This document shows positions 3,598 to 35,777 of a stretch of DNA of 64,000 nucleotides, piece after piece; position 1 is the first letter of the stretch, and each line of letters opens with the position of its first letter. The notes below the pieces were generated by a model, which saw only the letters and a list, made by a program, of their open reading frames with translations, had not been told where the DNA came from and did not search any database. The stretch covers positions 12,774,001 through 12,838,000 of the forward strand of contig CM119371.1 in assembly GCA_051294905.1 (NCBI GenBank), in the 5' to 3' direction. The position numbers were made by a program, and so were the translations under genes. This stretch comes from Botryllus schlosseri (lineage: Eukaryota).

Positions 3598-4037
3598 TTT
3601 ATGATAGTGAAAAATATCGCCTCTCCCCGATATTGTCATATCACGAAATGCAACCAGAATGCTTGCAATTCCAATGGGTATTTTGATCGCATGGGAAGTT
3701 ATGACTGCTGATGAGACGATTCTCAAATATGAAAATTCGGATTATACACTACACAGAGCAATGACCATGAATTGGAGTTAAATCGCGATGAGAACATCTT
3801 GTGTAAGGGTACACTTGATCCTTCCTTTAAGTTTTTTTTTATAATAGTACAACCCTGCAAACACCACCTACAAAAATCAATATTGAAATTGATTCGTTAT
3901 CACTGGCGTGACAGTGATAGTATACTGCTAACGCCAGTTGTGAGTCCAGCCATACAGTCTGCCGTGTAAAAATATGTCAATATTAAATCTATCTTTATCT
4001 CCATTTGCATGTATTTGATAGTCTTTTCAGTACCTTC

Positions 4038-4120
4038 TTATCGGTAGAATATTAGTATGGTAGACGATATATCAGACGTTACCGCACTGTTTCCATCAGT
4101 TATGGTTGTTTCATCCCAAC
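4038..4120 (-). CDS. Second copy of the intelectin-like terminal exon (alternative last exon or duplication remnant)
   Basis: Acceptor ..ataattcag|GT then TGG: GWDETTITDGNSAVTSDISSTILIFYR*. Same phase as exon 10291-10218. Flanking intron and 3' sequence are also duplicated (3605-4160 ~ 9790-10330; 5460-5610 ~ 10455-10605). Confidence 0.6.
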
Positions 4121-4429
4121 CTGAATTATGAATGATAATATTAAATAGAAGGCAGTTTAAAAAAGCGTCAGAAAGCTTGTTAAATTTGAGCCCACTAATC
4201 ATCGGTGATGAGATAACTGTCATTTGATTCTTTCTGTAGCTTAAATGAGAAGGGTGTTAATGGACGTAAGCTGTCGGAAAAATAGTGTCTCAATGATAAT
4301 TTTTAGGATAAAAACTAGCTATTGCTTCATCAGTGCACTACACCACGCATGTTAGTACTACATGGAAGCTGATATACACTCATCCAAGCCCATATTCACC
4401 TCCTCAAGCGTGACAACATTACTCATAAG

Positions 4430-9646: not shown

Positions 9647-10217
9647 CTGACTATACCAAACCATACAATATTATGTAGGCCTTTGTAGGCATTTCTGGCC
9701 CTGCGAACGGATTTTGAGAAGTTGTCACGCAGACATGTAATGTAATGTATTCAGTGAAGCCAATAAATTTCCAATTTATTACTTTCGAGTGAAAATATCG
9801 GCCAAGGACCAAGGCGATGGAAAAATTTCGCGACCCCCGTACCCATATCGTCATATCACAAAATGCAACCAGAATGCTAGCAATCCGAACGGGTAATTCG
9901 ATCACAAATATGAAATTCGGACCATACACAGATCATTAACCATGAATTGGAGTTATATCGCGTTGAGAACCACTGCATGGTGTAAGAGTATATATACTTA
10001 ATCCTGTATGAAATTGTCAATAATCGTACGACCTTGTAAACACCACCTACAAAAATCAATATTGAAAGGTATTCGTTGTCATTGGTTTGACAGTGATAGT
10101 ATACTGCTAACGCCAGTTGCCAATCCAGCCATACAATATGTGGTGTATAAATATCTCAATATTGAATGCATATTCATCTTCATTTGCAGGAATTTGATAG
10201 TCTTTTTCAGTCCGGTC

Positions 10218-13200
10218 TCAACGGTAGAATATGAGTATAGTAGACGACATATCAGATGATACCGAACTGTTTCCATATGCTTCATCCCAACCTGATTTAC
10301 GAAAGATAATATTAAATTGAAGGCGGTTTAAATCGTGTGACAACATTGCGAGAGTAACTTTATTACTTCTTCTGTGTTGTAGCATGAACATGTTATAACA
10401 AAGAAATATATGATTCCTAACTACTACTTGAGACGCACACGAACTATTCATTATTAAAGAACCAAATAATATTATTTATATAATAGTTAATAATATGTGA
10501 CCATGAAAAGAGTCTTGAAGAAAGGCCGTAGTTGGCGTAGGAGATTACGGTGATGTGTGTCTTCGACAATCAAATAGGCTACTTACCGGTTTTCGTTATA
10601 CCAAATGCAGGTCAGCAATTAAAATACCATGATCCATAGGTCGGATTCTATTGACTGCTTACCAGCAAAGTCACCGCATGTTCCACGAGTCGTAATATCA
10701 TTTGATATTCCCCCAATGCACACGTCTTCCGGTCTCGCCGTTGTGAGAAGACTGAATAGGAATTATTTTAGGTTTCAAGTAGCCTACTAATCCAATGCAA
10801 TTTTGTCTTCGTTGAACAGGACAGATGGGAATAGCACATAACAAAAAAACTATGAAGACTTCACTCGACTATGCCATTTATCGAAATTCGAAACGATTTT
10901 GTGGAAGTAATGTTACAATTATGACAATATGAATTGACGACGAAACAACGGTACAAATACGATACTGTTATCATTAGTGCTGACAAAAACAGTTGAAAAT
11001 ATTTCATTTTTTTGAAATCAAGTACAAATTCTTCCAATTGAATTATTCGAAAAATCTGTAACTGACCCCTTTGATATTTCGAATCAACTAAATGTCCGGC
11101 AATAAAGACAATTCCCGTTCACCCTAATTAAGACACAGTCCTGCATTAGCATTATGCAAGTATTGCTACGTACCTGAATCCTGGACATAGTGCGTTTGGA
11201 TATCCTCCGTAGTTGTAGGCTCGAAACTGCATATTTCCCGGAACAATGAATCGGTTCATGTAGGAAGGTATCCGATTTAGAAGATTTACTTCTGAACCTT
11301 TGTCAAATGTAACTGGCACGGTAACTGTTGCCATGTCGTGCCATTCTTAAAAACAAGTTTAGCGATAACATATTTGCGTGCATCGTACTTTCGATGCATG
11401 GGTTGCATTAGTATATTGGTAATATTTGACTTATGCCTGATGCACACTGGCCTAGCGGCGCAACTCAAATTCGAATCGCCTGCTATGCTGCGCACAATAA
11501 TTCTACTACTCGATTGTGAATCGATTCTCGACCTGGACTCGAGTCATTGCGACCGACATTTCATTGTAATTTCAAAGAATAGTAAAATAACCACACTATT
11601 GGGATGCCGTCTATTGGTACTGGTACTTGAAAATGCGACCAGAAACTGCTAAAGGTGGGGAAATGAGTATATTCTAAATGTGAACCATTCGATATCACCA
11701 AACAGAGTTATAAAATGCGGGATTAACTAGCAGTCAACACAATGACTTGGACTCGGGCTCGAGTCATAATACCATGACTCGAACTCGTCTCTCACTTTAC
11801 TGACTTGGACTCGGACTTGACTCGGGGGCGAATTAAAAATGACTCGACTTGACTCGTGTCTAAACTATAAAATTGAGATTGACTTGGGACTCGGAGTCTT
11901 GGTTGCAACCCTTAACTCTATGACCTGTTTACACTGATGGTATCGACTGCTTAACTGTTTAAGACTAAAATAACACCATATGCTTTCATATTAGGCTCAT
12001 ATTGCTTTCACTCAGCCGTTACCATTCGGCTTTCAGTTTTCATTGAACTTCATACTGCCCATTGATATAACATTTGACCGAGTCTTACCGTCCATAAGAT
12101 ACGGGAAAACGGTGACTCGTTGCAGCATCTGTGCGGTGATATCATCAATTTCCGATTGATTGTAGGCCTGTCCTCCATTTCTATTTAGATGAGAAAATAT
12201 GTCATTGTTGCCCGAACAACCCAAAATTAGGTGAATCTATTGGTCGCGTTTAAATATTGTCAACATCTTTAGACACAGAAATTTAGAGGGCATACCTTAC
12301 TTTATGCAGGGCTGTCAAACTCGACTGGCGTCGTGGGCCGGATTTAAACCTTGAAATCGCTCGCGGGCCGGACCATTCAAATGGTCCCAATATGCTACCG
12401 CAAAATCGACACCCTCGCTTTTTCCATGAATATTTTATTATCAATCGTATCCTACGGATCATAGGGTGGGTTATATTCCAGCTACACATTCATTCGCAAA
12501 CAACGGAATTTCGAAAATAAAATCTAAGATTGGTCGTTTGAATCGAACCTATAAAACACTGACTCTAACGACGGATAAGTTGGCAAATGTCTATGTTCCC
12601 TTTGTTTTAGTCGTACTCTGGCGTTAACTGTGGGTGTATACGTTGTGAGAAATACAACAGATTAAATTGTAAACGCGGACATTAGAAATTGGTCCTTCAT
12701 TATTAAAACGCGTTTAGGGTTTCTGTGTCTATCTTGAACCTTTTAAGTCAGACGTGATACAGTAGTGCGACGAAATGTACTTTAATTGTACTCTTTTGTT
12801 ACTATTATATTATCCATGCGACCTGTATATAACAGTTTCGCTGTGGCTTTTCCGCTTCTGCAAATAACTACTTTTGGGTTCATTCTCCCATAAAAATCTG
12901 AACTCTGTGTCGCGGAAGTTGATGTCAGTGTCACTAATTTGTTTCTGATCGTGACTATATAACTATAACACCGCTGTAGGATGATCATGATGGGGCCTCT
13001 GATCTTGACATTTGCTCCCTTGTGGGCAATATTACTTACAATAAGATTTCAACATTTGTCAGTAATGTGCTGGATATCACAGGCATTTTTAATCTACTCA
13101 GAATTGTTTTGCGGGCCAGATGAAATCGTCTGGCGGGTCGGATGCAGCCCGCGGGCCGTATGTTTGACACCCCTGCTCTACGCGCTAAGATGTTTAATAA

Positions 13201-16200
13201 TGTAATGGTGTTGAATTTTCATTCTCGTTACTTATCGGTACACTTCTTTAACTGTAATTGCCTTGTAATGGCCTCCCATGTAGTGGCCTTGTTTCAAGCT
13301 TAATATGGTATATATCTTTTGCGAACAGTCACGAAGTTTGTGGCATAAAAATAGAATAAGAATAATGTAAGGTTCAAGTATACCTTGTCTCAAAATTATC
13401 CAAGCTTCAAACTCCGTATCTTCATATATATCAATAGTTCTCAGACTATTGAGCGACAGACTCATTTGTGGGTCACGGTCATGAATTATTATCCACCAGG
13501 ATATATTATACAGTTAGCATATCGGATTGTTATGACATCTTCTAATTATGATTAAAATGAGGTTGAGTGTTCACGTAGTCGGTGTTTCATTTGGACGAAA
13601 CGAAACTGTCCGCAACTAAAATCGGCAGATTGGACAACATGTTAAACAAAGTCAACCAGGTTGAAATGACCGATTTAGTGGGAACATCATGATCAAACCA
13701 ACAAGAAATATGAAAGGGGCCCTGCACTATAAGTATGATGTTGTCTCAAAATGAAAATAAAATTGGGAAAGTGAGCATAGCACACGTGCGATTTCTGCGG
13801 TATGGCGGTTATTTGTCATCCGGCGTCATTAATTATAAACAGAGGTGGTCAGTAACGAAGTACTTCTACTTTTTCGAAGTACTCAAGTAGTTTTACTCCA
13901 CTTCTGGTACTTACTCAAGTAGATAGAATCTCCGCTACTTCTACTTCTACTTCGTAAAATTTAGTGATCCAGTTACTTACTTTTCGCTATTTTCAGTTTG
14001 TCAAGTAGAAGTAGTGTAACCATCCTAGAGAAACTTGGGAATTGTCGGGCTGTTTTCACGGAGCTCTAACTTTCAATTTTAAGAAAATTTAGATCAGACC
14101 CAGAATTTCCGTCGCGCTTCACATCTAGTAGATTTAGAGTTACAAATAAGTTTTCACGAAAGTGGATATTAGTTAGGTTGCACGTTGGATTGCACCGCAT
14201 TGTCGCCCATATGACATATTTGATCACAATAAATATGGCCCTGCGTAACTTTTGAAAATATCGTTTCGCAATCTAGCTTTTACCCATCATATCGCAATCT
14301 AGCAGCCAATCATGGCGTGTGCTATTCTGGAAAAGTGGGCTCTCACTTGTTGAGCGTTGAATCTGTTTTAGCAGCCCACCGTTAAAACTGTCTCGACAAA
14401 AGACATAAAATAGATTTTGCGCTTTTCTGATGTAGTTCTAGTTCAATTCACAGTATCACTACTTAGAGTTCTAATTAGTCGGAGTTCTTTCGTCTGGAGA
14501 ACATACATGTTCTAGTTTAAAAGCAAGTGTATCATCGCCGTCTATTTTCCTAAAATACAATTACACTATATGGTATTTTTACGTTGCGCCATATTGTTTT
14601 TATCTAGGCTTACCATACGTCCTCTTTTTTGACTTTTTTGAAAGTGTCCTCGGAGGACGCCCTTTTGTCCTCTTTTTTGAGATTTTGTCCTCTTTTTTAG
14701 GATTTAGAGCAGATTTAGAGCAAACTGCGAGGGATATGCCACATATTAGCACAGACGTGAAGCTCCGACGGCTGAAAAACGGTGATTTTAGCTCTTAGCG
14801 AAAAGATGACCTTTTTTTTTTTTTTTTTTTAGGCTTCCAACTGGCGATGTGGAGTAAAAAACGTTATTTTGAGTTCTGCGCGGAGAAGATGACCTCTTTT
14901 TTTTTTTTTTTTAGTCAACCGATCACAAAGTGGGGAGTAATTAACCGTATTTTGAGAATTTCACTCCGGTTCTGCGACTTGCAAATTTCTGAAAAAGTGT
15001 CCTCTTTTTTGATTTCCAAAATATGGTAAGCCTATTTTATCATCACATACGAATCGCGCAAAGTCTTAACATCGTGTCCATACAACTTCTCCGCATTGTT
15101 CTTCGACTAAACTGAAGGCCATAATATGCGCGAGGAAACATGCCGACATTTTCTAAAACGGGATGTTCGATTAAAGAAAACATTGTATATCATTTCCATA
15201 GCAAAACTATCATTTACATCTCATGATTCGGTCGAATGCTCATGCTGTCGGACATTTATACTGTCTGGGATGCATAAGCTCTCTGCACCTTTTGTATATC
15301 TCAATTTGCAGCTTTTGAAAGTCTATGCGAACGTATAATGACCGTTTTCAAAACTACTTACTTACTTGAGTAGATTTAAAGCCAGCAAATTCTACTTCTA
15401 CTTCAAGTAGGTAAAGGTGGCTTATGGAAGAAGTACTTCTACTCGTACTCGAGTAGATTTTTGCGTCGCTACTTCTACTTCTACTTGAGTAGCTTTCCTG
15501 ACTACTTTGACCACCTCTGCAAACGACCTCAATCTTCGTGTCCAATTCTGCCAGGTGTTGCGTGGAAACATATTGAAACTTGTAACATGAATGTATTCAT
15601 GCATTATCATTCATTATTCGTACCGGGCGAAGCTAGGCTGTGTGTGACCGGTACTGTGCCAACGCTTTCTGATCTGATGTAGATGTTTATATGACGAATG
15701 CCTAACCCAAAACAATGGCATGGTGTATTTAGGGGGTGCCAGTTGTGCCTCATTAATCTTGATGTAGAAATATGATAATATTTTCGTTCTGCGGTTGATT
15801 CGCTGTAGGGTCCTCTTTTTAATATTCATGGTGAATTTGAAAATGTCTTTGAGAAATTTTGATCGTATCATGAGATCGAAAGGCATTTGTCCAGTTTAGC
15901 GGTGAAGAGTAAACCGAAGACCACTATTGTGATTACATATATTTATATGTTTCAAGGAAATGAGAGTTCGTGCTCTTGCATCATACATGGAATATAAGTG
16001 AGTGACGCCTCATAGCCTATAGCTAGTAAAAGGGGACTATAAGAAGGAGGTCTCGTCCAGATACTGCAACAGAGATACAATACGTGCCGGAAGTCGATAA
16101 CGCTGATAATTAACAGTAACCTCGACACTACAGAGAACGTATAGTCTATTATAGTGCATTTTTTTCAGCTGAAGTTCAAATACGGTCGCTTTCTAGAAAA

Positions 16201-19200
16201 AATGACTGCTATTAATATAATTTTCCAAATATTATCTTTAATTCGAGACCGCATTATATTTAGAGCGCAGTGCATTGTTCGAAATCGCTATTCGACCAAG
16301 ATTTTTATTATTCTTAACTAATCAGTTATGGTTCGTTTTTGTCCATCCATGGAAGTTACATTTGGTATCTAGTATAGATGTTCATCGATCCATGCATTAA
16401 TGCTGTTAGTGGAAAAACACCTTGCGCCTACCTGGTTAGCAAAGTGTAACCAAACAAAATCCGAGATTGCCGACCCTGAATACGATAGCTTGCGTAGCAG
16501 TCAGACTCCTGGGATTTGATAAACTGAGATGGTGGTATTGATCTCCAGTCCTGGGGAATATATATAGAAATATTAAAATGTCGTTGACATTCTTATGATT
16601 ATACTGTAACAGCATTTGCAATTAGTCTGAGCATACCTTGTCGTTTGAAATATAAAAGTGAATACGACATTCGGACTTTCGCGTTGTACCCAATGGCGTG
16701 AACTGGATGGCATGATACTGCATGATGAAGTCTCCATTCGTCACATTGTTCTGGAATCCAGTCGTTTTGAACAGCTTACAACGTGTACCCATCCCCTATA
16801 ATAACATCAAATAATTCTAAAGATACAAAGAGTGTCCGCGAATAGGATCTAACTGCGATCTCGTGAATCTTTGATTTTCCTATGTCGTTTCTTATAGCCA
16901 TAAGAAAGGTGAATGGCGTAGTCAGAGCGCTGAAAGAAATTTCATCTAAATCTTCACTTCTGAAAAATAAACGGTACATAGAATAATCGTGGCAGTACGG
17001 ATTAATCATGCATAATGATATAGGTCGTAGTCGTTGACAGTGACTTATAAGTAGGGCTGGGCGAAATCGAGTACCTGAGTGATTCGATTCTGAATCACGT
17101 AATATGCTTCGAGTCGAGTCGAGTAATCGAGTATCACTCGTTATGACGTCATATTCGAATGTAATATGTCAAAGCTCTAATATGTACCTTTTATGCGATC
17201 TCAAAGAATATAATGCCTGTTATCCATCGCATTAAAGATACTTTGGTATTATTCAACCATACCGATTTCATTGCACTTGGTGACAATGTTGTGGGATGAT
17301 CATGACTTCAGAAACATGCTATTCCCAGTAACGTTGGTAGCTTTGTACTACATGTTACGTATGATACCATACGGGCAATCAATGTTTCAAGGCTCCAACA
17401 GTGAAAATTAGTATCGAAACTATAATTCTCGTTGATAAATTAACTTTCAGTGGCGAGAAACGTATAATTTCAGTACTCGAAAAAATCGACTTTTACTACT
17501 CGACTCGAATCATTAAAATTAATACTCGATTCAGATTCGAGTACTCGAATCATTGTGCCCAGCCCTACTTATAAGCAATGTTCCCTCTAATTTTTCACGA
17601 GTCTGCGCAAATACGCCAACTCACTGCGCAGGCCCTTGGACAACAGTGCGCAACCAGGCCCCCCATAGGGTGATAAACCGAACTTCTGGGGGGCTTCGCC
17701 CCCCAGACCCCCCTCGGGCTGCACGCTTTCCCCCGCTACTAATCATCTGTGTCTGGTATTCGTTTGGTGGGCGTTCCAACTAAACGCGCGAAGCGCTAAA
17801 ATTTTCTATAATTCATGATCAAATCGGTCAATATCATCGAGAAATGCATATATTTCTATCAATTTTAATCCTGTCTCTGCTCACGTAATCACATTTGCAG
17901 GTAAAGCTGATCGAGTGAGATGTGTTAATAGTATAATTGCTCGCTCGTGAAGCGTAAAATACCGGAAGTCAAGAATGTTGCATTTCGAAGCCAGAAACGC
18001 AGCATTTCGAGCTAGCTAGCAGTCGAAAATCAGCCTATGGAGCTTCGGAAAAGCGCCATTGTGGTGCTTCATGGACGTGCATTGTGTATTTCGTGGAACT
18101 AATTACACTGTATATCGTGCATATTGTTGATTTTCCACGATCGGTTTTGAAAACAGGTGTTTTTAATGTGTAGTGACCTACATATTCCGCGGGGACAAAT
18201 GACTATGGTATCCTGTCCACTGAATCACTATAGTGGTTATATCGCGAATTGTTTCCCGTGGAACAGGTTGGTCTAGAAGTGGTCCGTGAGCGTACACAAT
18301 ACGAACCAAATACAACCGCTCAGCGCAAATCTGACTCACTGTGTTAAGTAGCCTATATCACGAATCACAGATGTATACATTTAATGTGTTTATGAGGCAC
18401 CTGTAATCAAGCTCTTTACAAAAACACGAACAATTTTATCATTCTCACATTTTTTATCACCAAAATAATTTAGATACTGTTCAGTTGAAAAACCTTGAGA
18501 TCTTTTAATTAAATATGAAATACAATGATCAGCGCACATATCAGATTTTTTACTTTGAAGCTGTTGCCTGGTAACGGTGAAGTCCTCTGGACCTAGAAAC
18601 TCGACTATCTGAGGTTTTAGGGGTGGGATCATAACCATGTTAGCTTTAAACACGCTTCTACTATATATGTGTAGATTTCGCGCCCCCTTATCGTCATATC
18701 ACAAAACGCAACCAGCATGCTATAGCCAACCTAACGGATAGTTTGGTGGCATGGGAGGTTACGACTATTGATGAGAGATTTTTAAATATGAAATTCATAC
18801 TAAAATACAGAGCTATAATTATGAATTGGAAGTAAATCGCGCGGAGCGCGAGAAAATTTTTCAGTTGAGCTCAGCGTCGCGATCCCCTTCAGATGCTTTC
18901 ATGACCTCAAGGGGCACGGGTCCCCCAGGTTGAGACCCACTGCCTTAGAATTATCATGGTGAAATATAGCCTACTAAGAATAAGTTTAATCAAGTCCCCG
19001 CATTAATTCGATTTTTAGTACACATTTTATCAATATTTTAGTAAGTTTCTTCAGACTCTCGCGGGCCGCTCAGTCTAGATATCCCTGAAAGAAGGTTTGG
19101 TTACTTCTTGTGACTTTAATTGTAACGGTATAATTTGCTACTTTGACTTTACTTCGAATCTGGATTAGGCATGTGAGGTACGTATAGGCTGCGTAATCGC

Positions 19201-22200
19201 GGCATGTTAACGAATGGGCTTGATAGTAAACGAATTTCAGCTTCAATTTATACATCCTATGGTTTTAGTCCATACACAGCAACATTAAAAAGTAGGTTTT
19301 ATATTTTCAATTTCAAGCAACCTTTCGCGGGCCGTACAAAATAGCTCCGCTGGCCGAATTTGGCCCGCGGGTCGCACTTTGCTCAGGCCTGGTATAGGGT
19401 ATCTTGGGTTTGGAGACGTGAATAAGACTTTAGATCAGTTCATCATCTCCCATCCACTACTACCATGTGCATCGTAGTGCTCCGACAAGGCAAACGTTCG
19501 TTTAATCCGGAAAGTCGTCATTTTGTGGCTATTTCCCTGAAAAATTGCGTTAAATAATCCCCAAAGGCAACACGCTTTCAATATCAAATACTGCCCCTCA
19601 ATATCCCCTCTAATTTTTCACGAGTCTGCGCACACTCAACAACTCACTGGCGCGGTCCCTCGGAAAACAGTGCGTAACGACAGAAAAAAAGGTCATCACT
19701 TCGGCTTTCTTGTGCGCGGGATACGTTTTTCTGTGCGCGGAGACTTCGTCAGCAGTGCGCGGCCGCGCACGCGCGCAGCTTAAAGGGAACATTGCTTATA
19801 AGTCGAAGCGTATGGTCTGGATATCACGATACCTTGGGCCAGTATCCGCCGCATGTACGGAGTTCGCTCTCATAAGCTTTATTAATAATTTCAAACGCAT
19901 AGTTCCAAATCAATCGTGGGAAATTATGCAACTTTTTGATCTTCCCGACTTCCATTATGAAGACGAATGATGGGAATTCTCTTCAACGCCTAAACACATC
20001 ATAATTAGGGCTGGGTACAATGATTCGAGTACTCGAATCTGAATCGAGTATCAATTTTAGTGATTCGAGTCGAGTAGTAAAATACGATTTTTCGAGTATT
20101 GAAATTATACGCTATACGCAACTGAAAGTTAATTTACTAACGAGAATATCAGTTTTGATGCTAATTTCCACCATGGAGGCCTCGAAACCTTGATTGGCCA
20201 TGTCGCAGCATACGAGACATATTACAAAGCTACGCACGTTACTGGAAACAACACATGTCCGAAGTCATGATCATCCCACAAAATTGTCAAGAAGTGAAAT
20301 GAAGTCGGTATGGTCGAAAAAATACCAAAAGTATCTTTGATGTTACGGATAACAGGCATTATATTCTTTGTGATGGCATAAAAGGTACATATTTGAACTT
20401 TGACATTGTACATTATGCTGTGACGTCATAATGAGTGATACTCGAATACTCGACTCGACTCGAAACGTAATGCGTGATTCAGAATCGAATCACTCAGTTG
20501 CTCGATTTTGCCCAGCCATATCCTAATTCCGAGAGATCGGACCCTATATGTCAATATATATACATATATAATATGTATATATGGATACGAATTCGCAAAA
20601 CACGAGCCTAGTTATGGGGTGGGCAATTCTTGACAAGCGAGCCGTATGCAATCTTTCATGAACCCGCTGCGGCACTCCATAGGCTTAAAGCAAAAAAAAA
20701 TGTATATTTCATGGATAATTTTATGAAATCATATTTTATGTATATATTGTCTATAACATTAATTCCCAAGCGCGGCCCCGCGGGCAGCATGCGGCCCCCA
20801 GCTAGCCTTCTTGCGGCCCCAAAAAATATTAAGAAATCGAGTTTATGACAAAAAATTAAATTGATATTTATAAAATACACTAGCATGGCTTGGAGTCTGG
20901 AGTTTTTAATTAAGATTGCAGGAAAGTCGTGAGTAGACTGCTATCGTTACTTCCAGTTGAAGGAGCAGTAGCTAGAGATATAGGTAAAGACAGGACTGTA
21001 ACTGCCGCACGCCAAACCCTCAATGAAGGGGGGGGGGGGGCGAGCTCGAACGGGGCTCAAAATTATTTCGTGAATTAGCATAAGTTATAGAGTACTTTTT
21101 GGAACATTTTTACATCTTTTTCAATTTTTTGTTGCTGTGGGCGTGATTTCATGCTGCCAAATATCTTGATTTTTGGGTGCTCATCCCCAAGAAAAAATGC
21201 GCAAGATTTACAGAAATGGGCATTGGGCATATCGGCGTTAGCCTGACGAAGTGCTGTTTCGTTCCTGCCAACGGGTAGGCCTATATACGCCCGAAGATAT
21301 TTAATTATTACTGAGGGACCCTACCATTAAACACACTTCCCTCGGCTCTAGCAGAGAGAGGATAAAAATTGATGGCAATACATATGCAATTCCCGATCAT
21401 ATTGACCGATTCAATCGTGAATTACAGAAAATTTTCGCGCTTCGCGCGTGTACGCGATAAAACCTGACTCGCTAACTCGCCCCGAAAGCAGTATAATTGG
21501 TAGTCCTATAGATCACGACCGAAGCGTCCGCATAATTTGATAGGTCCGGTCTTTATCGGAAGCTAGTTTCGCACTGATTCGAAAAATGCAAATTGAAATC
21601 TCGCCAGGGCAAAAAAACTACTCCGAAGTAGCCTCCAAAGGTCGACTGTTCTAAACAATGGGAGCGCACCAACACAATGACCATACAATGGCCAATGGCG
21701 TCAAGTGATTGATCGGAACAATGCCAATTTTCATATTATGACGACATTTTGGGTCCGTTTAATTGCCCTGGTATTCGTGCGGCCCCGACCGTGCTCTGAA
21801 ATTATAAATTTGACCCTCACACCGAAAAAGTTTGGGAACCACCGGTCTATAAGCTATGATCGTGTAAGTTTTAAAGTTGTTTTCTCATTTTACTGAAGTT
21901 GTCAAGGTTTTACTTTGAGATTACATATGTAGTTTACTTAGGTAGGACTAAATTACAACAGTGGTATGATTTTAATCTAGGAATGAAACAGATCGTGCGT
22001 CTTATGATTGGTTTTATGTGAACGGGAATAGGTTCAAATGGCGCTTTGTGTTGATGGTTTTCAACCTTGGGCACAGATAAGAAAAATATGATACCTATAG
22101 ATATAGGTAATGAGCAGGACCATTTTTATATGACCTTAAAAAATCAATTATATGACTTTATTTTCGGGAAAATATGACTTTATATGACTTTATGCGAAAA

Positions 22201-25200
22201 TCGTGTATTTTTTCATGTAACCAACGTCACTCGTGGAACTGACGAGTAAACCATGAACAACATAACAGTAATACACATCCATTTTTAGTTTAAACCACTT
22301 TTGTAGTACAGTTTCGTGTATGTGGAGTGTTGGAGTCTTTAAAGTTACGATTTGTCTTTGTAGCTCCATAATTTGTTTCACATCGTTTTTGTCCAATCGG
22401 TTCTTAAAGTAATTTTCGAGCTCAAGCGGATCTTTTCCGAAATCGCGGGCATTTAGATCAGCATGAGCCTCTTTGATAGTGTACGTACAACTTTCCATTT
22501 TCAGTATCTAAGTTTGAAATATTATTGTAGTGGTGGTATATTTCTGTTAACTGACTCGTCAACTTTGGATCGTTCACTGAATCTTTGACGCTCTTTACAT
22601 TAACTCCTTCAGCGTCCCATGCGTTGACTATTTCTTTCACTTGTGGAAGTCTGAACTTCAAATGACGTCCCACTTCAGTGCACAGAAGTAAAACAGATTG
22701 TGTAGCAACACAAGGCAATGTGTGACCTCATAATGCAATGTGTGACCTCATAGGTCTGCGACTGTAATGTTATGTAGGCTAACCTTACAGTTTGCCTTCG
22801 TTCAATCAGAAATTGCCTTACTTTCTTAGTGCGTAATCGTTTCAATTGGCACTTTTTATTTAAAGTATACAACAATATGACTTTATAACTCAAATATGAC
22901 GTAACCAGAAAAATATGACTTTATAACTTTCTTAACCCCATATGGATGCGGTTTTTGCGTTAAAATTGGTTTCACGACTTACTGATGCATAGAAAAAATA
23001 TGACTTTAATGACTTTAAATGGCTCTAGTAATGATATAGAGAGCAAATATCAGGCATCTTTTCACATTTAACAATCTAAGTTACGAAGCAATCTCTTTCC
23101 TTACCTGAATTCCATTCCATATGGTACATATTGTTTGATTCCAGCAGGATTCCCAACTTTTATATACACCTGCGTTGTGGGAATATATACTTAACAAGTG
23201 CTGCCACATAAAGAGATAAAAAGGAAGTGAGGCGACAGCTCAGCAATCATGCAGAACACACGGCACTTTCGGACACCACGGTTTCACGACATATATTCAC
23301 ATTCATAGTCACTTGAAGATATTATTAAACTTCGATATACAGATGCTTTCCCTACATTCCCCTTGCGCAGGAAAATATGTGTGTTAAGTTATAGCGATGT
23401 GAGGTTATATGTTGAGTAACAACAAGATATTTTCCAAGGTCAAGTTGAGGTCGTCTCCGGTCCGAATATGGTAATGAACTCTATACTGTTTCTACGTAAA
23501 CTCATATAACGCTGCATTCAAATACTAGGACTTGTATTCCTAAATTAGCAGAATCAACATTTCACAATGTGTCGAATAATCTCATCTCATCCTATATAAG
23601 AAGGAAGGGAAAAACAGTGAATCGATACTGAATCGAGTATTAGACTTTGAGTCGGGTGTTCGAGTATCATTGATTATGTAGTCAAAACAGTAAGCAGAGT
23701 GCTTTATGAAAGTTCAAATATTTCCCCATTTTGCAACCACGTGTGATGGCGGCGGCTCTTCATCACTTTGAAGGTAATTTGGTAGTTTTTCGACATACCT
23801 ATTTCATTGCACTTTCTGACAGTGATGTATGGGTGAATCATATGGCTTTACGTGACGTCATTTCTACTTACGCGCCTGGAATTGTAGTACAGTTTTCATA
23901 TAATGACATACGACTTTTCGAGGCTTCGGGGCTGTAACAGTAGGGCTATCATACGTTCTCTGTTAAATTAATCCTCGTATCCGAATTCAAATTGGAGTAG
24001 TCAAATCATTGAGTCCAGCTTCACATATAAATAACGGGTCGAGTATTCAGTGTCACTCATTATGACGTAACAGCAGAATGTTCTCTGTTAAAGTTCAAAT
24101 ATGTACCTTTTATGCCACCAATAAGAACATACTGCTTGTTATCCGTCAGATTAAAGATACTTTGGCATTTTTTCGACCGTACCGATTGCATCGCACTTGT
24201 TGACAATATTGTGGGATGATATGACTTCGGAAATGTTTTATTTCCACTAACGTTCAGAACTTTGCATTTTGTCTCGTATGTTGCGACACGACTAATCGAA
24301 GTTTCGAGGCTTCCTCAGTGGAAAATAGTATCAATACTACAATTCTCGTTAGTAAGTTAACGTTTATTTAAGAGAAGCGTCTAATTTCAGTACTCGAAAA
24401 AATCGTATTTTACTACTCGACTCGAATCATTAAAATTAATACTCGATTCAGATTCGAGTACTCGAATCATTGTGCTCAGCCCTAGTAACAATTCGATATG
24501 CAAAGTTAAATCGGATGCAGGGTATATTTGAAGAAGACGAAATTGTTACCTATTTTTCACGAGTCTGCGCGCACTCACGAACTCACTGCGCGGTCCCCCG
24601 GACAACAGTGCGTAACGAGTAAAAGAAGGTCATCACTTTCCTCCTCGCCACCTCATCCGCGTCAGCGGTGTCTTACAAAAGCCTAGTGGTGGGCCGTGCT
24701 ATAAGTCGGCAGTTACGGAAAATAAGAAGAATACCGGCCTGGTGTAAATGACCATAGTAGTCGACAAACACCATGAATACCCCAAAACAAAAACAAAACA
24801 AGGTCATCACTTCGGCTTTTTTGTGCGCAGCTTAGATTTTTTGTTGGCATAAACAGTATCAGCAATGCGCAATTGTGCACGCGCGCAGCGTAGAGGGAAC
24901 ATTGGTCGATGGCCGCATCATATTCCTTCTTCTGCAGCATATTGGCCACTCATGGACTAAAGTATATCAATATTGGATTTAACTTGTCGCGGTACCTGCT
25001 AGAAATCTATCTCCTCGTAAAGCTTGGTCATTTGGGGATCCCGAAGCCGATTTCTAAGGGTCACGCGCATCTTAGAGGGAATATTGCTTGCCACGTCGAT
25101 ATTTTGGTGAATAATTTATGTTTTCGCTAGAAAACTCATCAAAATGGCACCGAATTAGAAGTCATAAAGTTGCAAGTTTTGTGGAATAGCAAATCGCCGT

Positions 25201-28200
25201 TTTTTTTTTTCATTTTTGCTACTACAGTTCACACGTTATTGGCGTTGCTTATTGCGGAAGTAGTTAATCACCAAATAGAAGTTTGAAATTGTGATGACAA
25301 TATCATGCTAAATACTATACAATGATAAGTCATTGTCTCACTTTTATCGAAAATATTATTGGATCGTCCAGTTAATTTAACGCTCTGACAATTCACTTTG
25401 CATTACGGTGTCGTACATTTTAAATGACATCTCTCAAACTCATCCATACCCGATTTGAATGAGGAAATACAACATCTCGTACACGTCTTGACGATGTAAC
25501 CATCACAGATAATCACATTGCGGTAGGAACCTAAAATGACTTTTTACTACCTGATTTGTCATTCCGATCACCATATTTGTATCTGCGATTGATGATTTCC
25601 CGAATTTCAGCCGATTTTTATATTCATACCATCCAGAAATCGATTGCTTGATTTCGGAGAATGATTCAATCAGCGGTTTCAGGAATTTTCTGGTGATGTT
25701 CGAATCTGTAAGGTTTAAATAAATGGGTGTTGAAATATTTGTCATTCGACTTTTATTATCTTGGGAAAAAGAATGAAAATTACACCGTTTAATGGTTTCA
25801 GTCATATAATTTATACGCATGCCTATTGCATCAGGCTTAAAATATCAAGTGAAGTCCAAGTTACTAAAACATTGATGAAGAAGTAGTATTAAGTGATCGA
25901 ATTTTTTTTAGAAACGGGAGCAGTGCGTTATTAGAGGCGATGATTATCGTTTAATGGCATGTAATAGAGAAATATATACCCGATACCAGTGCTTTTCAAC
26001 CTGTGTGACGGTTCGCACTTGAGCGTATGACAATCGCGGTGCGAACGGATGAGTGCGAATGAAAATTGTCCATTAGGATAGTCCAAAATTTGGAGAATCT
26101 TAAAAAGGATCCGTGATTGTGCCTCATTCCATAGATTATTGATAAAAACAACAATGGGCATTAAAGAAGCTCACATGAAAGCCGTTCCGATTTTGATCAA
26201 AGCGTTTAAAAGTAGCTGCAGAAGATTGGGCGTGCCACCACCATAGAACGACGAGAAGACTACTTAGTCACATAACCGCGGCTCTTTATTGGCTAATCGG
26301 TCATGCTTCAATGATCACGACAGCAGCACCTTGCTGATTAGGTGTTCAGGCAGTCTGCTACCGGCGAAGATTATGAAAGCGCATTGTTGGTAGGTTGTCA
26401 GATTATGATTTAAGATTAATTCAGGACATGCTGAGGTGAGAAATACATGATGAACAAACAGCAATTGCTTCACAAAACATTTTAGAACCTGACTGCTTTA
26501 TTGTGAAGGAAACGGCTGTAGCTGCCGTGTTTTAATCGAGGGAAAGCAAAGGCGCTTATGCATGTGGTGAACGAAATATCCGTTTCAGAAGGGATCCATC
26601 ATTAGCGAATACAATTATAAACCTTAAAGACGACACTATATTTGCAGAGACTTATATCATCTATTACTTGGATTGTATGGGTATGTATAGCTAGGGCTGG
26701 GCACAATGATTCGAGTACTCGAATCTGAATCGAGTATTAATTTTAATGATTCGAGTCGAGTAGTAAAAGACGATTTTTTCGAGTACTGAAATTATACGCT
26801 CCTCGCTACTTAAAGTTAATTTATCAACGAGAATTGTATATTCGATACTAATTTTCGCTATTGATACCTTGATTGACCGCTTCGTAGCATACGAAACATA
26901 TAGTACAAATCTACGAACGCTACTGGAAATAGCACATTTCCGAAGTCATGAAATTCCCACAGCATTGTCACCAATTGCAATGAAATCGTTGTCGTCGAAA
27001 AAATACCAAGGTATGTTTAATGTAATGGATAACAGGCATTATATTCTTTGTGGTCGCATAAAAGATATGTATTTGAACTTTGACGGATTACATTCTGTTA
27101 TGACGTCATAATGAGTGATACTCGATTACTCGACTCGACTCGAAGCATTTTACGTGATTCAGAATCGAATCACTCAGGTACTCGATTTTGCCCAGCCCTA
27201 TGTATAGCAATGTATTTCTGATTTTAACGCCCACCGTACCATCCAGTCTGCTAACATATACCTTCGTACGGTGAAGCATCCTTTCAAATGTTGACAGAGA
27301 AGTGTTTACAAGCGCCAATTATGTCAATAAAACAAAAAACAAACATCACGATGACGTACATGTCGATTTAGTGGAAAAGTGTTATTGTTGCGAGTGAATA
27401 TTGCTCTTGGGTTCGCTATTTAAGCTTCGAAGGAAATTCCCCCGGAAGAAGCAACGAACACCTGAAGGACAGCGGGAGTGCGATATTTTCTACATCGGTG
27501 ATATTAGTACTTGGTTAATCAATAATACAATAAGCTGAATGTGAAATAATGAAGCTCTGTACCTCCAAGAAGCTCTTCGAATACAGAAGTAATAAGTTTC
27601 CTCATTTTCGTTTTTATGGAATAAAATCCAGTTGGCAGGTGCGAATGTGAAGGTTGAAAAGCACTGCCTTATATGATTTTCGGGGTACACTATCAGCTCG
27701 TGATATTTTGAGTAGGCGTGACTTGAAATACAAATATTCAAGTTGGTCATCTGGTCAGTGTTATAGATGCATATGTAAAGAATTATGTACCATACCGAAG
27801 TACTATAAACCATTATATTTGGCATATACCATAAGTGTAGCAGTAGCTGTATTTAACGATTCAGTGGATACATTATTTAACAGCATCATCGACGAAAATG
27901 GAATTGTAAAGAGTGAACATAATTAAAAATAAACGTCGTCTTACTTGATACGTTAGTCAATGGAAGATGCTTCGAGAATAAAGTTTTCAAGTTGCCTCCA
28001 TAATTTCGAAGAAAGCTGTTGGTTGTTCTATAGCGTAAATGCGAATCGCTCATCGCGACATGCAAAGATACGTAGGATGGGGAATGCCAGATCATGATAT
28101 CCGAGGACTGTGGAAGACAGATACTAAGTTATGATCTAACATGAACGGAAAATCGGGCGGGATTGATGCGTCATCATTCAACGTATGATACACGAATTTA

Positions 28201-30684
28201 TGCGCGTTAAAGTCAATGCCTAGTTTACGCTACAATTGCGTAATTGCATATCAGATTCAGCAATAAAGCTCCGAGATACACTTGATCATAAGGTTCTTCT
28301 CGGTCACAGTGAAAACCTTGGTGAAACCTACATTTGCGCGATAGATGATAGCCTACTTCCAGATATTGGCTCCCGCCAACTTCATCGTAAGTATATAGGC
28401 CTAATTTCGAATTTTGTCACCATCGCTTAATTATCTGAATGAAGACGGACACATGAAATATCAGGGGTTTAGGAAGAACGACAACGCCCACTTAACGTAT
28501 ATGCATGTGATTAACTCAGTTTCAATACAACAGATTTTCGTCTGGGGATTTTGCGATATGAGTAAATGTGGAAGTTCCAGGAATTATCATACAATGATTT
28601 CTTTACTAATTGTGTTTTCTGCGAGGTGAAATTCGTCATAAAGGATAGCATAAATATTACATTACTCACAAGCATCTCATAGTACGCAGGACTCTTATAA
28701 TCATCGAATAATGCCTGTCTGACGTCACCGAATGTCATTTCGTTTTCCCAGTTTAATTGACCTGGAATAATAACAGGTTATTTTAGGCAAATATCCGTCT
28801 GTTATGATGTTAAACGGAAGCAAAATATCGACATGTAACATGATTATATACGCTGATAGAATACACATTCCAGGCGCATTTCAGGTGTGATGTAACTGGA
28901 TGGCAACGGTGGAATATCGGCTTTCTCCCAGTATAGGACACCGCATACTCGATACATAATCCATAATATGTACAGTCACTCTACTACTCATTACGCATAT
29001 GCTACGCTTCGATAATGTGAAATATATGTCATCATGATTCTCTAACGCACCTTTGAAGCGATGAATATCAGGTATGTGCGCAGACCAACGATCGTCGAAA
29101 GAGCATTTAGCCTTGATGTCGGTCTCGTGAATACTTGCAACGAGAGACCATCCCCCTCCATCCGTTTCCATATCGCAGAAGACCTTCACCATTAAGATAG
29201 AGGCTCTTCATTGCGAGATAGGGCAACGAGATCGATATGTCTTGTTTTGTACTAAACAACGACATATTTACGAAACTGTTATGGTTCAACTACCTAAATA
29301 ATTCATTGAACTATACGAAATGATAGTATCCCAAACCGCTGGACGCAAAAAAATAAATTGCCGAAAAAGCACCATAGTACGACGGCGTGGCTGTATGGCA
29401 GAGTTTCCTACCCTAAAACATATTTGAAAATCTTCCGCAACCCAACACCTGATTTGGCGTACTGATTAAAGTGATTATTACAAAATGGTCAGCAGCATGT
29501 CCCAAACATACTGACTGGCCATTCGGAATACTGGTGACTATGTGCGCATTAATAGCCTAATAAAGATACAATTATGAACTTGTAAACCTCGGTCTATCAA
29601 GACTATACCAACGTATATAGATCTTTTGGATCGATTTATATCTATATCCAAACGAAGTATTCAAGTAATGCCACTTGACATTTTGCGTCAAACGAAATAC
29701 AGATAGCGATGCACGGGTTATTCGGCCGCCTCTAGCGTGTATACTGTTGAAACATAGCACTACCGGTAACTTGTAGTTTTACTGGGGGAAGCAGTAAACA
29801 CCGTCCTGATCCTATTGCTTTGTACGAAGCCGACATTTTAACTTTCATAATGATGGCCAGACACAAACCACGCCCCTCAGAAAGTCGGATGCGCCGATAC
29901 CTCGTTTGTCTGGATCGCATTCCTCAAACGGCGTATTTTTCTCTATTTACTAAAATGAACTAAATGTTCCAGAAACCAGCCTGTGATAGAATCCTGTTAA
30001 TTGGCATTTTATTACAGTATATTGTATTTAATTTTCGTCTCCACGACCCTAAAGGAATGACCCTAGGTTGGTAACCCTGCCGTGGGGATCGAAATAAGTT
30101 GTGACAAGCAATATTTAGCGCATTTGATATTCTACCATAATCCATGCACGTTACTTCACAGCGCATCCATGAGGTCAAGGTATTGCTGAACAAGTTACTT
30201 GTAATTTCTCAACTGTTCTTTTGTATTGACGCTGGCTATACTCCTATGTGTGTATTAGCCATGTCATTGACCCACTTATTCGCAAACGGAATTCATTTCC
30301 TAATGACGGTTACACATTGCATAAAGCGAAGGATTACGCTACTCACTTCTGACGGCAGCCCATTCTTCAACAAATTCAGCTTAGATATTCCAGATTCCTG
30401 TACTCCGTGGCGTTTAAGTTCGAGGCAAGACTCACTTAGTCTTGATTCATTTCGATACTTCTACGAATGATAAATCTAATGTATGGTTCAGCAATCCACG
30501 CAGTACTCTCAACTTACCATTTGGTTCAGCAGAATCGCACATAGTAAAGCTATGCTAGATATTACGAGGATAATCAAAGATAGCATCCCGAATAACAATA
30601 TGCGATGTGGTGCCGTCGCGTTTTTCTGCGATGTCTGCGTCTCTATTGTTATCTTTGTGGATTCCGGATTGATTGAATCAGACG
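10218..30684 (-). CDS. Intelectin-like (X-lectin/fibrinogen-related) protein with N-terminal TM anchor and ~250-aa internal insertion; 14 exons, 5' end incomplete
   Basis: Exons with GT-AG ends and consistent phases: 30684-30518 (TM RILLFGMLSLIILVISSIALLCAILL); 30460-30347 (SESCLELKRHGVQESG); 29183-29051 (VFCDMETDGGGWSLVASIHE..KC..DRWS); 28761-28670 (NWENEMTFG..DDYKSPAYY); 28107-27945 (DIMIWHSP..LRYRTTNSFL..YGGNL); insert exons 25759-25551, 23169-23105, 16959-16854, 16795-16637, 16550-16432, 12180-12089; 11345-11174 (VPVTFDKG..PGNMQFRAYNYGGYPNALCPG); 10751-10663 (EDVCIGG..CGDFA); 10291-10218 (GW..ILIFYR*). Blocks match intelectin motifs (FCDM..GGGWTLVAS, DDYKNPGYY, QFRVFN..NALC, CIGG, CGDF, LLFYR*). 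Total 1754 nt, about 584 codons. Confidence 0.85.
12307..13175. mobile_element. hAT (Charlie/Buster-like) MITE
   Basis: cagggctgtcaaac ... gtttgacacccctg with gcgggccg subterminal motifs; TSD degraded. Confidence 0.7.
13840..15519. mobile_element. MITE with tacttc/tactcaagta subterminal arrays, containing a nested MITE
   Basis: TIR cagaggtggtca / tgaccacctctg; no clear TSD. Confidence 0.75.
14605..15034. mobile_element. hAT MITE (taggcttaccata family), nested; second copy at 34875-35319
   Basis: 13-bp TIR taggcttaccata / tatggtaagccta; TSD approximately ttttatc. Confidence 0.85.
17052..17567 (+). mobile_element. ~515-bp hAT MITE (tagggctgggc family)
   Basis: TIR tagggctgggc / gcccagcccta; TSD cttataag; tcgagt/actcga subterminal repeats. 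Confidence 0.9.
17576..19794 (+). mobile_element. Composite non-autonomous hAT, 2219 bp
   Basis: TIR caatgttccct / agggaacattg. Perfect TSD cttataag. No differences from 35778-37996 seen by eye. Confidence 0.95.
20006..20520 (-). mobile_element. tagggctgggc-family MITE
   Basis: Diverged reverse-complement copy of 17052-17567. Confidence 0.85.
22115..23027 (-). mobile_element. Deleted hAT derivative with frameshifted transposase fragments
   Basis: Ends caggaccattt / aaatggctcta. TSD gtaatgag / gtaatgat. atatgacttt subterminal repeats. Minus-strand ORF pieces LPQVKEIVNAW.., MESCTYTIKEAHADL..DFGKDP..YFKNRL. Confidence 0.75.
23941..24484 (+). mobile_element. tagggctgggc-family MITE (5' part rearranged)
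   Basis: 24035-24484 matches 17120-17567; left end approximate. Confidence 0.7.
24550..24904 (+). mobile_element. Short caatgttccct-family MITE interrupted by a SINE 3' fragment (~24650-24800)
   Basis: tttttcacgagtctgcgc...cagtgcgtaacg ... agggaacattg, with aggtcatcactt duplicated around the insert. Confidence 0.7.
26692..27200 (-). mobile_element. tagggctgggc-family MITE
   Basis: TIRs intact; perfect TSD tgtatagc. Confidence 0.9.
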
Positions 30685-35319: not shown

Positions 35320-35777
35320 ACATAACGTCTGAGTGTGTTTGGAAAGCTGCCGGAAGCTGCAAAAAAAGTTGAACAATTTGGAAAAACTTGCCTAGTTATA
35401 AGATAAGCATCCAACGCAACGATTGGCAAAATGGTAATTTCGACCTCTAAAGAGCGAGCCGGGACGACTACGGAAATACAAATAAACAGTGACCACAAAA
35501 TATAGAATTTACGTTCTCACTTTGATATATTCCAGCGGTCCCGGGGACGCGAAGCTCTGCTCCGTCGTTATATTGCGCATACATATGTTCATTTCCGTGA
35601 TTCTGACACAGCATCGCAGACCGTGAAGATAATTTTTCGTGTTGATATTGCAGTACCGATTCTATCCGAACAAGGCAATAAGCTATGGTAGAATGCAGAC
35701 ATTGTTAACGATGGGCGCAAAAGAGGCTGGTAGAATACCGCATATAAAAAGTAACGCAAAGAACGTTGGTTGATTAG

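Follow-up and report, generated by a model that had tools for sequence, protein, structure and literature searches.

The lectin gene and its six intronic exons

The stretch analysed here, hereafter the window, comprises 64,000 nucleotides (nt) of the Botryllus schlosseri genome (assembly GCA_051294905.1, contig CM119371.1; C1:12.774-12.838 Mb in a 495.5-Mb assembly) with about 40% G+C. Its minus strand carries an intelectin-type lectin gene of at least 13 coding exons, which extends from position 30440 down to a TGA stop codon at 10218-10220 and in whose large intron six exons are predicted to encode an additional domain within the carbohydrate-recognition fold. The 13-exon chain has AG/GT at every border and forms one open frame with no stop codon. 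The upstream exons were placed by spliced alignment of the Styela clava protein P0010 to the window, after which borders and frame were checked; no first coding exons (signal peptide or membrane anchor) of the window gene were located. In the order of the reading frame, the exons are as follows.

30347..30440, minus strand: upstream intelectin exon with the fibrinogen-like start ..SCLELKRHG.. (P0010 spliced alignment, AG/GT borders, open)
29051..29183, minus strand: intelectin exon with the FCDMETDGGGWSLVASIHE motif (PDB sequence search; borders checked)
28670..28761, minus strand: intelectin exon ..NWENEMTFGDV..DDYKSPAYY.. (spliced alignments; borders and frame checked)
27945..28107, minus strand: intelectin N-half exon, ending in phase 1 immediately 5' of the insert (matches to XEEL and human intelectin-1)
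25551..25759, minus strand: insert exon 1, 209 nt, phase 1 in and 0 out, N-terminal helix region and ..ISGWYEY.. (borders, hidden Markov model, paralog copies)
23105..23169, minus strand: insert exon 2, 65 nt, phase 0 in and 2 out (borders, hidden Markov model)
16854..16959, minus strand: insert exon 3, 106 nt, phase 2 in and 0 out, ..TTPFTFLMAIRND.. (borders, hidden Markov model, profile search)
16637..16795, minus strand: insert exon 4, 159 nt, phase 0 in and out, ..QYHAIQF..ECRIHFYISNDK (genomic matches, hidden Markov model)
16432..16550, minus strand: insert exon 5, 119 nt, phase 0 in and 2 out, DWRSIPP..ILFGYTLLT (genomic matches, hidden Markov model, substitution rates)
12089..12180, minus strand: insert exon 6, 92 nt, phase 2 in and 1 out, C-terminal helix region (borders, hidden Markov model, paralogs)
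11174..11345, minus strand: intelectin C-half exon, starting in phase 1 immediately 3' of the insert (human intelectin-1 match)
10663..10751, minus strand: intelectin exon ..CIGGISNDITTRGTCGDFA.. (13-exon chain check)
10218..10291, minus strand: last intelectin exon ..GWDEAYGNSSVSSDMSSTILIFYR with the TGA stop (13-exon chain check)

All six insert segments have AG immediately upstream and GT immediately downstream, the weaker GTTAGA serving as one of the donors; they total 750 nt, overlap none of the repeats in the window, and can be read through from the N-half to the C-half without a stop. The original prediction, that six GT-AG exons chain in frame between two intelectin half-exons, was reproduced in its borders, lengths and quoted peptides. 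No signal peptide could be read from the sequence of insert exon 1, although the domain family to which it belongs is extracellular.

The lectin identity of the flanking exons is supported by searches against the PDB. For the exon at 29051..29183, the matches to the lamprey serum lectin (7e1e_A, with E 4.8e-13) and to human intelectin-1 (E 1.2e-11) are far stronger than that to fibrinogen (E 1.7e-3). The window gene contains the fibrinogen-like N-terminal segment with the CDM..DGGGW motif by which intelectins are recognised, as well as the region ..RPEDVCIGG..CGDFAGW..; the Pfam family Fibrinogen_C scores 20.4 bits, slightly below its cut-off of 22. Immediately upstream of the break, the N-half exon matches XEEL (4wmo_F, E 2.2e-5) and residues 111-156 of human intelectin-1 (6usc_A), and downstream of it the C-half exon matches residues 168-219 of the same human chain (E 0.069, weak on its own). 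Homology to solved intelectins is therefore found on both sides of the break, and the window gene is colinear with the Styela protein P0007. Since the two exons align to these two stretches of 6usc_A, the halves are contiguous in canonical intelectins, as the original prediction had stated for vertebrates. Members of the intelectin family possess a single uninterrupted carbohydrate-recognition domain of about 270 residues; in the window gene about 250 residues lie between the halves, and it is accordingly classified as a variant architecture and not as a canonical intelectin.

The inserted domain in ascidian proteins and paralogous genes

Single-exon queries with exon 4 and with the N-half returned nothing, but queries of about 53 amino acids cannot reach significance in that protein database, as judged from a blank control. 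A joint profile of insert exons 3 and 4, derived from alignment A1, was searched against 1.84 billion proteins at E <= 1e-3 and retrieved 15 proteins, in each of which the two exons correspond to one contiguous stretch. Thirteen of these proteins are named, and all 13 belong to ascidians (Styela clava, Clavelina lepadiformis, Ciona intestinalis and Phallusia mammillata), where they are called "uncharacterized" or similar; a further search added five more Styela proteins. A whole-domain hidden Markov model (HMM) of 226 positions was then built with jackhmmer exclusively from public ascidian proteins, with no sequence from the Botryllus genome. The spliced insert of the window matches this model colinearly over positions 4-222 (131.3 bits, E 1.9e-42). 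This full-length match indicates that all six exons are needed and together make up exactly one domain, and the match to an independent profile, combined with the conserved copies described below, argues that the six-exon chain did not arise by chance.

The nested arrangement itself recurs in Styela, where a single copy of the domain lies within the intelectin in P0007, P0010, P0021, P0026 and P0027; P0013 (with P0021) and P0011 are also listed as nested. In P0007, residues 11-174 and 180-288 of XEEL (4wmo_F) are matched with 247 inserted residues between them (E 4e-48). Inserts in tandem occur inside the Styela lectin fold, with two in P0003 and P0028 and one and a half in P0030, and P0019 is also listed among them; this suggests that the nested cassette was itself duplicated in place. 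The suggestion in the original prediction that similar inserts exist in unannotated marine-invertebrate proteins is thus borne out by uncharacterized proteins of Styela clava. Outside intelectins, the domain forms free tandem arrays of seven copies in Ciona (LOC104266555), eight in the Phallusia mammillata homolog and three in Clavelina P0006, and, in Clavelina proteins, free copies stand beside Sushi (P0008), CUB (P0005) and Sushi-Trypsin-VWD-C8-TIL modules (P0009). The free copies share a conserved DGGNDMYDxGN motif that is degenerate in the nested copies, including those of Styela; at the corresponding profile positions the window reads ..IADTNMVIGMTN.. and ..SSIADTNMVIGMTNQ.., and lacks the motif.

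Within the Botryllus genome, an exon-by-exon search located open copies of insert exons 1, 4 and 5 that are bracketed by copies of the N-half and C-half, with strand and order preserved. Such clusters lie on C1 at 9.66-10.01, 10.68, 10.73 and 10.82 Mb, and also on C7 and C5. Exon 4 has ten genomic matches, all of them open, and the C-half exon has twenty genomic paralog matches. Comparison of seven genomic regions by tblastn and spliced alignment established the order N-half, insert, C-half in at least four paralogs (P1-P4). In the closest, P1, all six insert exons were found by tblastn at 83-97% amino-acid identity, all eight exon borders occupy identical positions, and 707 of the 750 insert nucleotides are identical, compared with 85-91% identity in the aligned intron blocks. 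P1 (C1:10837266-10837472, locus L010; approximately 94-95% nucleotide identity in exons) carries a TAA codon in insert exon 1 in place of a tyrosine codon of the window, which reflects either a young pseudogene or an allelic or assembly difference.

In P2, P3 and P4, exons 3-6 were recovered by tblastn, except for exon 6 of P4, which was found by spliced alignment only, and exon 1 is weak in all three. Matches to their insert exons are mostly 34-49% identical (range 34-75%), compared with 47-58% in the intelectin half-exons. In the spliced alignments of exons 3-6, the junction phases are unchanged, exon 4 measures 156 nt and exon 6 measures 92 nt; exons 3 and 5 measure 106 and 128 nt in P2 and P3, and 89 (as aligned) and 116 nt in P4. 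The 106-nt length of exon 3 is also found in P1 and in a locus on C17, counterparts of exon 2 (62-71 nt) lie at the equivalent place in the paralogs and in a free-domain gene, and in each of P1-P4 exon 6 (92 nt) is followed by a phase-1 junction to the C-half. Between P2 and P3, the ratio of nonsynonymous to synonymous substitution rates (dN/dS) is 0.26 for insert exons 3-6, compared with 0.21 and 0.17 for the N-half and C-half respectively, which indicates that the insert is under purifying selection like the lectin flanks. Taken together with the conservation pattern of exons and introns, these ratios show that the insert is a constrained coding part of these genes.

Two more divergent intelectin-like genes (C7:22550919-22551290 and C7:25146587-25146955) contain, between their half-exons, domain-like sequence that was detected with a Styela free-copy protein, and the nested subfamily is therefore probably larger than the reconstructed paralogs. 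A second large group of loci matches the N-terminal part of the intelectin (P0007 residues 52-150) with one exon of about 100 amino acids each, located on C13 (15.68-15.86 Mb), C11 (1.07 Mb), C15 (1.02 Mb), C4, C2 (23-24 Mb) and C1 (7.65-7.72 and 19.5-19.8 Mb). No C-half match was detected at these loci, and they may belong to canonical intelectins, to a further subfamily or to fibrinogen-related genes.

Predicted fold and origin of the domain

No consistent Pfam family was obtained for the single exons or for 15 domain copies, and neither the profile of exons 3 and 4 nor the whole-domain profile yielded anything usable in a PDB sequence search; the ESM Atlas, queried with a free copy, returned no usable match. 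A structural model was calculated with AlphaFold2 (AF2) for a free Clavelina copy, and not for the nested copy of the window, from 15 alignment rows. It reached a predicted local distance difference test score (pLDDT) of 88.6 and a predicted template modelling score of 0.89, and consists of about a dozen strands framed by one helix at each terminus. When this model was compared with 48,161 chains using VIA-align, the twelve best rows had Z scores of 8.0-9.6 with 170-195 residues aligned, and nearly all of these rows represent the beta-supersandwich at the N-terminus of GH65, GH116, GH94 and related enzymes; an oligoglucan phosphorylase, a glucan synthase and a dextran dextrinase are also among them. 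Aldose 1-epimerases and the YidC P1 domain followed at Z 6.4-7.5. The model suggests that the domain is probably a galactose-mutarotase-like supersandwich. A MAM-like domain, initially suspected from an ..EIDDI.. motif, was rejected, since Pfam returned no hit and the model has a supersandwich fold instead. The mostly-beta model, the full family match, the insertion site shared by the paralogs and Styela, and the selective constraint support the original prediction of an uncharacterised beta-rich module grafted into the lectin fold.

In an unrooted tree of 47 domain copies, one branch separates the 16 nested from the 31 free copies with a support of 100 in the Shimodaira-Hasegawa-like approximate likelihood-ratio test (SH-aLRT). 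The window and paralog copies form a clade (SH-aLRT 99), with the Styela nested copies outside it. As the tree is unrooted, a single origin of the nested arrangement is consistent with the data but unproven. At C2:5.466-5.485 Mb, the Botryllus genome also encodes a gene with free copies of the domain, orthologous to Styela P0012; the 10 kb of it that were examined (locus L029, C2:5473501-5483500) hold two domain copies. The exons of these copies measure at least 168, then 62, 100, 159, 131 and 80 nt in one and 155, 71, 100 and 156 nt in the other. They follow the phases 1-0-2-0-0-2-1, with intron positions in the alignment as in the window insert, and are flanked by phase-1 exons. Between the two copies lie three further phase 1-1 exons of 279, 291 and 300 nt, about 95 amino acids each, for which the Styela ortholog gives only sub-threshold Pfam hints of Ig V-set and I-set domains.

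The shared exon layout points to the six-exon, 1-1 symmetric cassette as the ancestral unit of the domain family, and the identical phase layout of the free gene suggests shuffling of the cassette into a phase-1 intron. Most likely, a phase-1 intron of an ancestral intelectin gene received the whole cassette in a single shuffling event before the split between the Botryllus and Styela lineages, and the nested gene multiplied afterwards in both.

Alternative explanations and comparison with known systems

The large intron contains repeats that bear on its size and on the reading of RNA data.

17571..19794, no strand assigned: young repeat element in the large intron, outside the gene product (99.96% identical to 35773-37996)

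Positions 18065-19794 of this element are 100% identical to an inverted copy at 9534-7805 just downstream of the gene, and the three copies of this 2.2-kb element carry open reading frames (ORFs) of about 100 amino acids; the element was probably mobile recently, and its insertion accounts for part of the size of the large intron. A second family of about 520 bp, 81-88% identical, occurs at 17052-17573, 20001-20521, 24035-24484 and 26686-27201 in the intron and at 49666-50182. Further downstream of the gene, by about 6 kb, an 80%-identical copy of its 3' end (last exon and flank, ..NSGWDETT..SSTILIFYR) lies at 3717-4161, with a minus-strand ORF at 4041-4256; no other intelectin exons were found beside it in the window, and it resembles either a tandem duplicate of part of the gene or the terminal portion of an adjacent paralog. 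Reads from four RNA runs (6-13% of each run, of unspecified tissue) were mapped to positions 10000-29500. They pile up beside some of the 520-bp copies, reaching about 88-fold depth with many loose ends in the bin 24322-24972, and presumably stem from repeat copies elsewhere in the genome.

We propose, with a probability of roughly 85%, that the window holds an intact minus-strand intelectin-type gene in which one complete copy of an unnamed extracellular domain of ascidians, about 235-250 residues long, breaks the carbohydrate-recognition fold, this copy being acquired as a shuffled cassette and translated as part of one polypeptide. In this scenario, (i) the six exons would be spliced into the intelectin mRNA of this copy; (ii) the single polypeptide would run from the N-terminal part of the lectin, through a beta-supersandwich with N- and C-terminal helices, to the C-terminal part of the lectin, the break falling at the equivalent of residues 174-180 of the XEEL chain; (iii) the lectin fold would still close around the insert, with the supersandwich projecting from the lectin body; and (iv) the product would be secreted or type-II-anchored as a single protein. 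A hydrophobic N-terminal anchor is present in one Styela protein isoform (X1).

Several observations weigh against this proposal. RNA depth is 0 to about 1 in the bins with intelectin exons and insert exons 1, 2, 5 and 6, the depth in the remaining bins was traced to repeats, and nearly all mapped reads fit only partly. Among the 15 joints listed, of 20 in all, none of the predicted splice junctions was found in the four partly read runs, so that we infer the splicing of the N-half to insert exon 1 and of insert exon 6 to the C-half. The closest paralog, P1, carries the premature TAA inside insert exon 1, dN/dS between the window and P1 is about 0.5-0.7 in all parts, and some copies may be decaying. 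The boundary between the N-half and exon 1 lies at a different nucleotide in P2 and P3, and the first approximately 25 residues of exon 1 are poorly conserved. At the structural level, no Foldseek match reached E <= 0.001 (GH65 maltose phosphorylase came closest at 1.1e-3), best Z scores of 7-8 are common for unmatched models according to the VIA-align note, which places the matches only moderately above background, and the AF2 model of full-length Styela P0007 (9 rows) was poor, with a pLDDT of 44.8. The Styela proteins are, moreover, automatic gene models.

The low RNA depth would be explained if this copy were a silent or decaying recent duplicate, with the architecture real in its relatives and unused here. 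Zero exon depth in the four runs, the stop codon in the nearest paralog together with the dN/dS of about 0.5-0.7 across all parts, and the young repeat insertions in the intron fit this idea; on the other hand, all 13 exons are open with intact AG/GT borders, exons are more conserved than introns in the comparison with P1, and the RNA result covers only a small portion of each run. We consider silence of this copy unlikely. Compatible with our proposal would be an alternative cassette as raised by the original prediction, in which the gene yields both an insert-bearing lectin and, by a 27945>11345 skip, a canonical-length intelectin. As the 750-nt block is 1-1 symmetric, skipping it keeps the frame, and the skip product would be colinear with solved intelectins, but no read in the partly read RNA runs covers the skip or a further junction of the gene, the four isoforms compared from two Styela genes differ at the N-terminus only and not at the insert, and no short canonical-length product occurred among matches from searches that were not designed for one. 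A cassette of this kind seems rather improbable to us.

Another reading would be that the six exons constitute an independent gene on the same strand, nested in the intelectin intron and co-duplicated with it, which would make the single ORF an artefact here and in the Styela models. The lack of RNA junctions leaves room for this, as do upstream in-frame ATG codons in the ORF of exon 1, a stop 18 codons past the exon 6 donor, and the fact that tandem duplication copies host and guest jointly. Against this, the block enters and leaves in phase 1 and fits the phase-1 intron of its host exactly, and both the 92-nt exon 6 and its junction phase with the C-half are retained in P1-P4; exon 1 has no signal peptide although the family is extracellular, and the nested copies form one group apart from the free ones, with a common degenerate motif, in an arrangement that recurs at several Styela loci. 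We judge this very improbable. That the chain merely strings together open AG..GT segments which happen to occur in a long, AT-rich intron has a negligible likelihood: short open segments are indeed frequent and the window contains many ORFs of at least 100 codons, but the match to the independent profile and the conserved copies in paralogs and other species refute this reading.

Returning to the proposed nested lectin, the insert may, by analogy, add a second surface for glycan or partner binding, or for spacing, to a secreted or surface-anchored pattern-recognition lectin; we suggest this role tentatively and favour it because of the usual company of the fold and the extracellular partners of the free copies. 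The loss of the conserved acidic motif in the nested copies suggests that the ancestral site was not kept. A bolder and more doubtful idea is that the nested module works as a second binding head, or else harbours a latent sugar-processing site, giving a two-headed membrane-anchored pattern-recognition lectin, and that the free copies with DGGNDMYDxGN represent a new tunicate family of extracellular proteins that bind or modify glycans. If the second binding head were real, ascidians would have nested one glycan-recognising fold inside another, the inner one being a fold otherwise known from carbohydrate-active enzymes.

To our knowledge, intelectins are regarded as single-domain lectins throughout chordates. 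Relative to known intelectins, the insert-bearing architecture is new, and it would represent a whole intelectin subfamily, expanded in at least two ascidian lineages, with a complete foreign domain inside its recognition fold. The nested architecture is already present in public databases as unnamed automatic models, and the domain family of about 235 residues itself appears to be undescribed. We found no description of the insert in ascidian intelectins in those parts of the full-text literature that were accessible, including PMC10980280 and PMC9953650, subscription papers lying outside this scope. The gene structure preserves the likely mechanism and would thereby offer a clean natural case of domain nesting by exon shuffling. 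The domain, which occurs in several ascidian extracellular architectures, would merit a family definition and a structure. When such hidden exons are not modelled, exon-by-exon annotation will call these loci canonical intelectins with one very long intron.

In comparison with vertebrate intelectins and X-type lectins of solved structure (human intelectin-1 4WMY and 6USC, Xenopus XEEL 4WMO, and lamprey serum lectin 7E1E), the window gene shares the fibrinogen-like start, the motifs CDM..DGGGW..VAS.HE and ..LRYRT.., and the C-terminal ..PV.FD.G.., ..CIGG.., ..CGDFAG.. and ..LIFYR, with exon-wise E values from 4.8e-13 to 0.069. It differs in that some 250 additional residues break the fold, the flanking positions corresponding to residues 174 and 180 of the XEEL chain, and in that some Styela relatives have an N-terminal membrane anchor. 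The uncharacterized RefSeq models of Styela clava (LOC120334985, LOC120342979, LOC120347880, LOC120334970, LOC120335080 and others) agree in nesting, insertion site and tree grouping; in contrast, insert identity to them is only 20-45%, the copies of the window genome form their own clade, and some Styela proteins contain two inserts. With the free copies of Ciona, Phallusia, Clavelina and Styela (LOC120342439 and its ortholog at C2:5.47 Mb), the window copy has in common the domain of about 235 amino acids and the six-exon phase layout, whereas the free copies retain DGGNDMYDxGN and occur in tandem arrays or next to other modules instead of within a second fold. Finally, the predicted fold of the free copy is tentatively comparable to the N-terminal domains of GH65, GH94, GH116, GH15 and GH63, aldose 1-epimerases and YidC P1, the superpositions at Z 8.0-9.6 covering 170-195 of 230 residues with root-mean-square deviations of 3.5-4.6 A, and is set apart from these galactose-mutarotase-like domains by an identity of 4-11%, no sequence-level match, and the additional N- and C-terminal helices of the ascidian domain.

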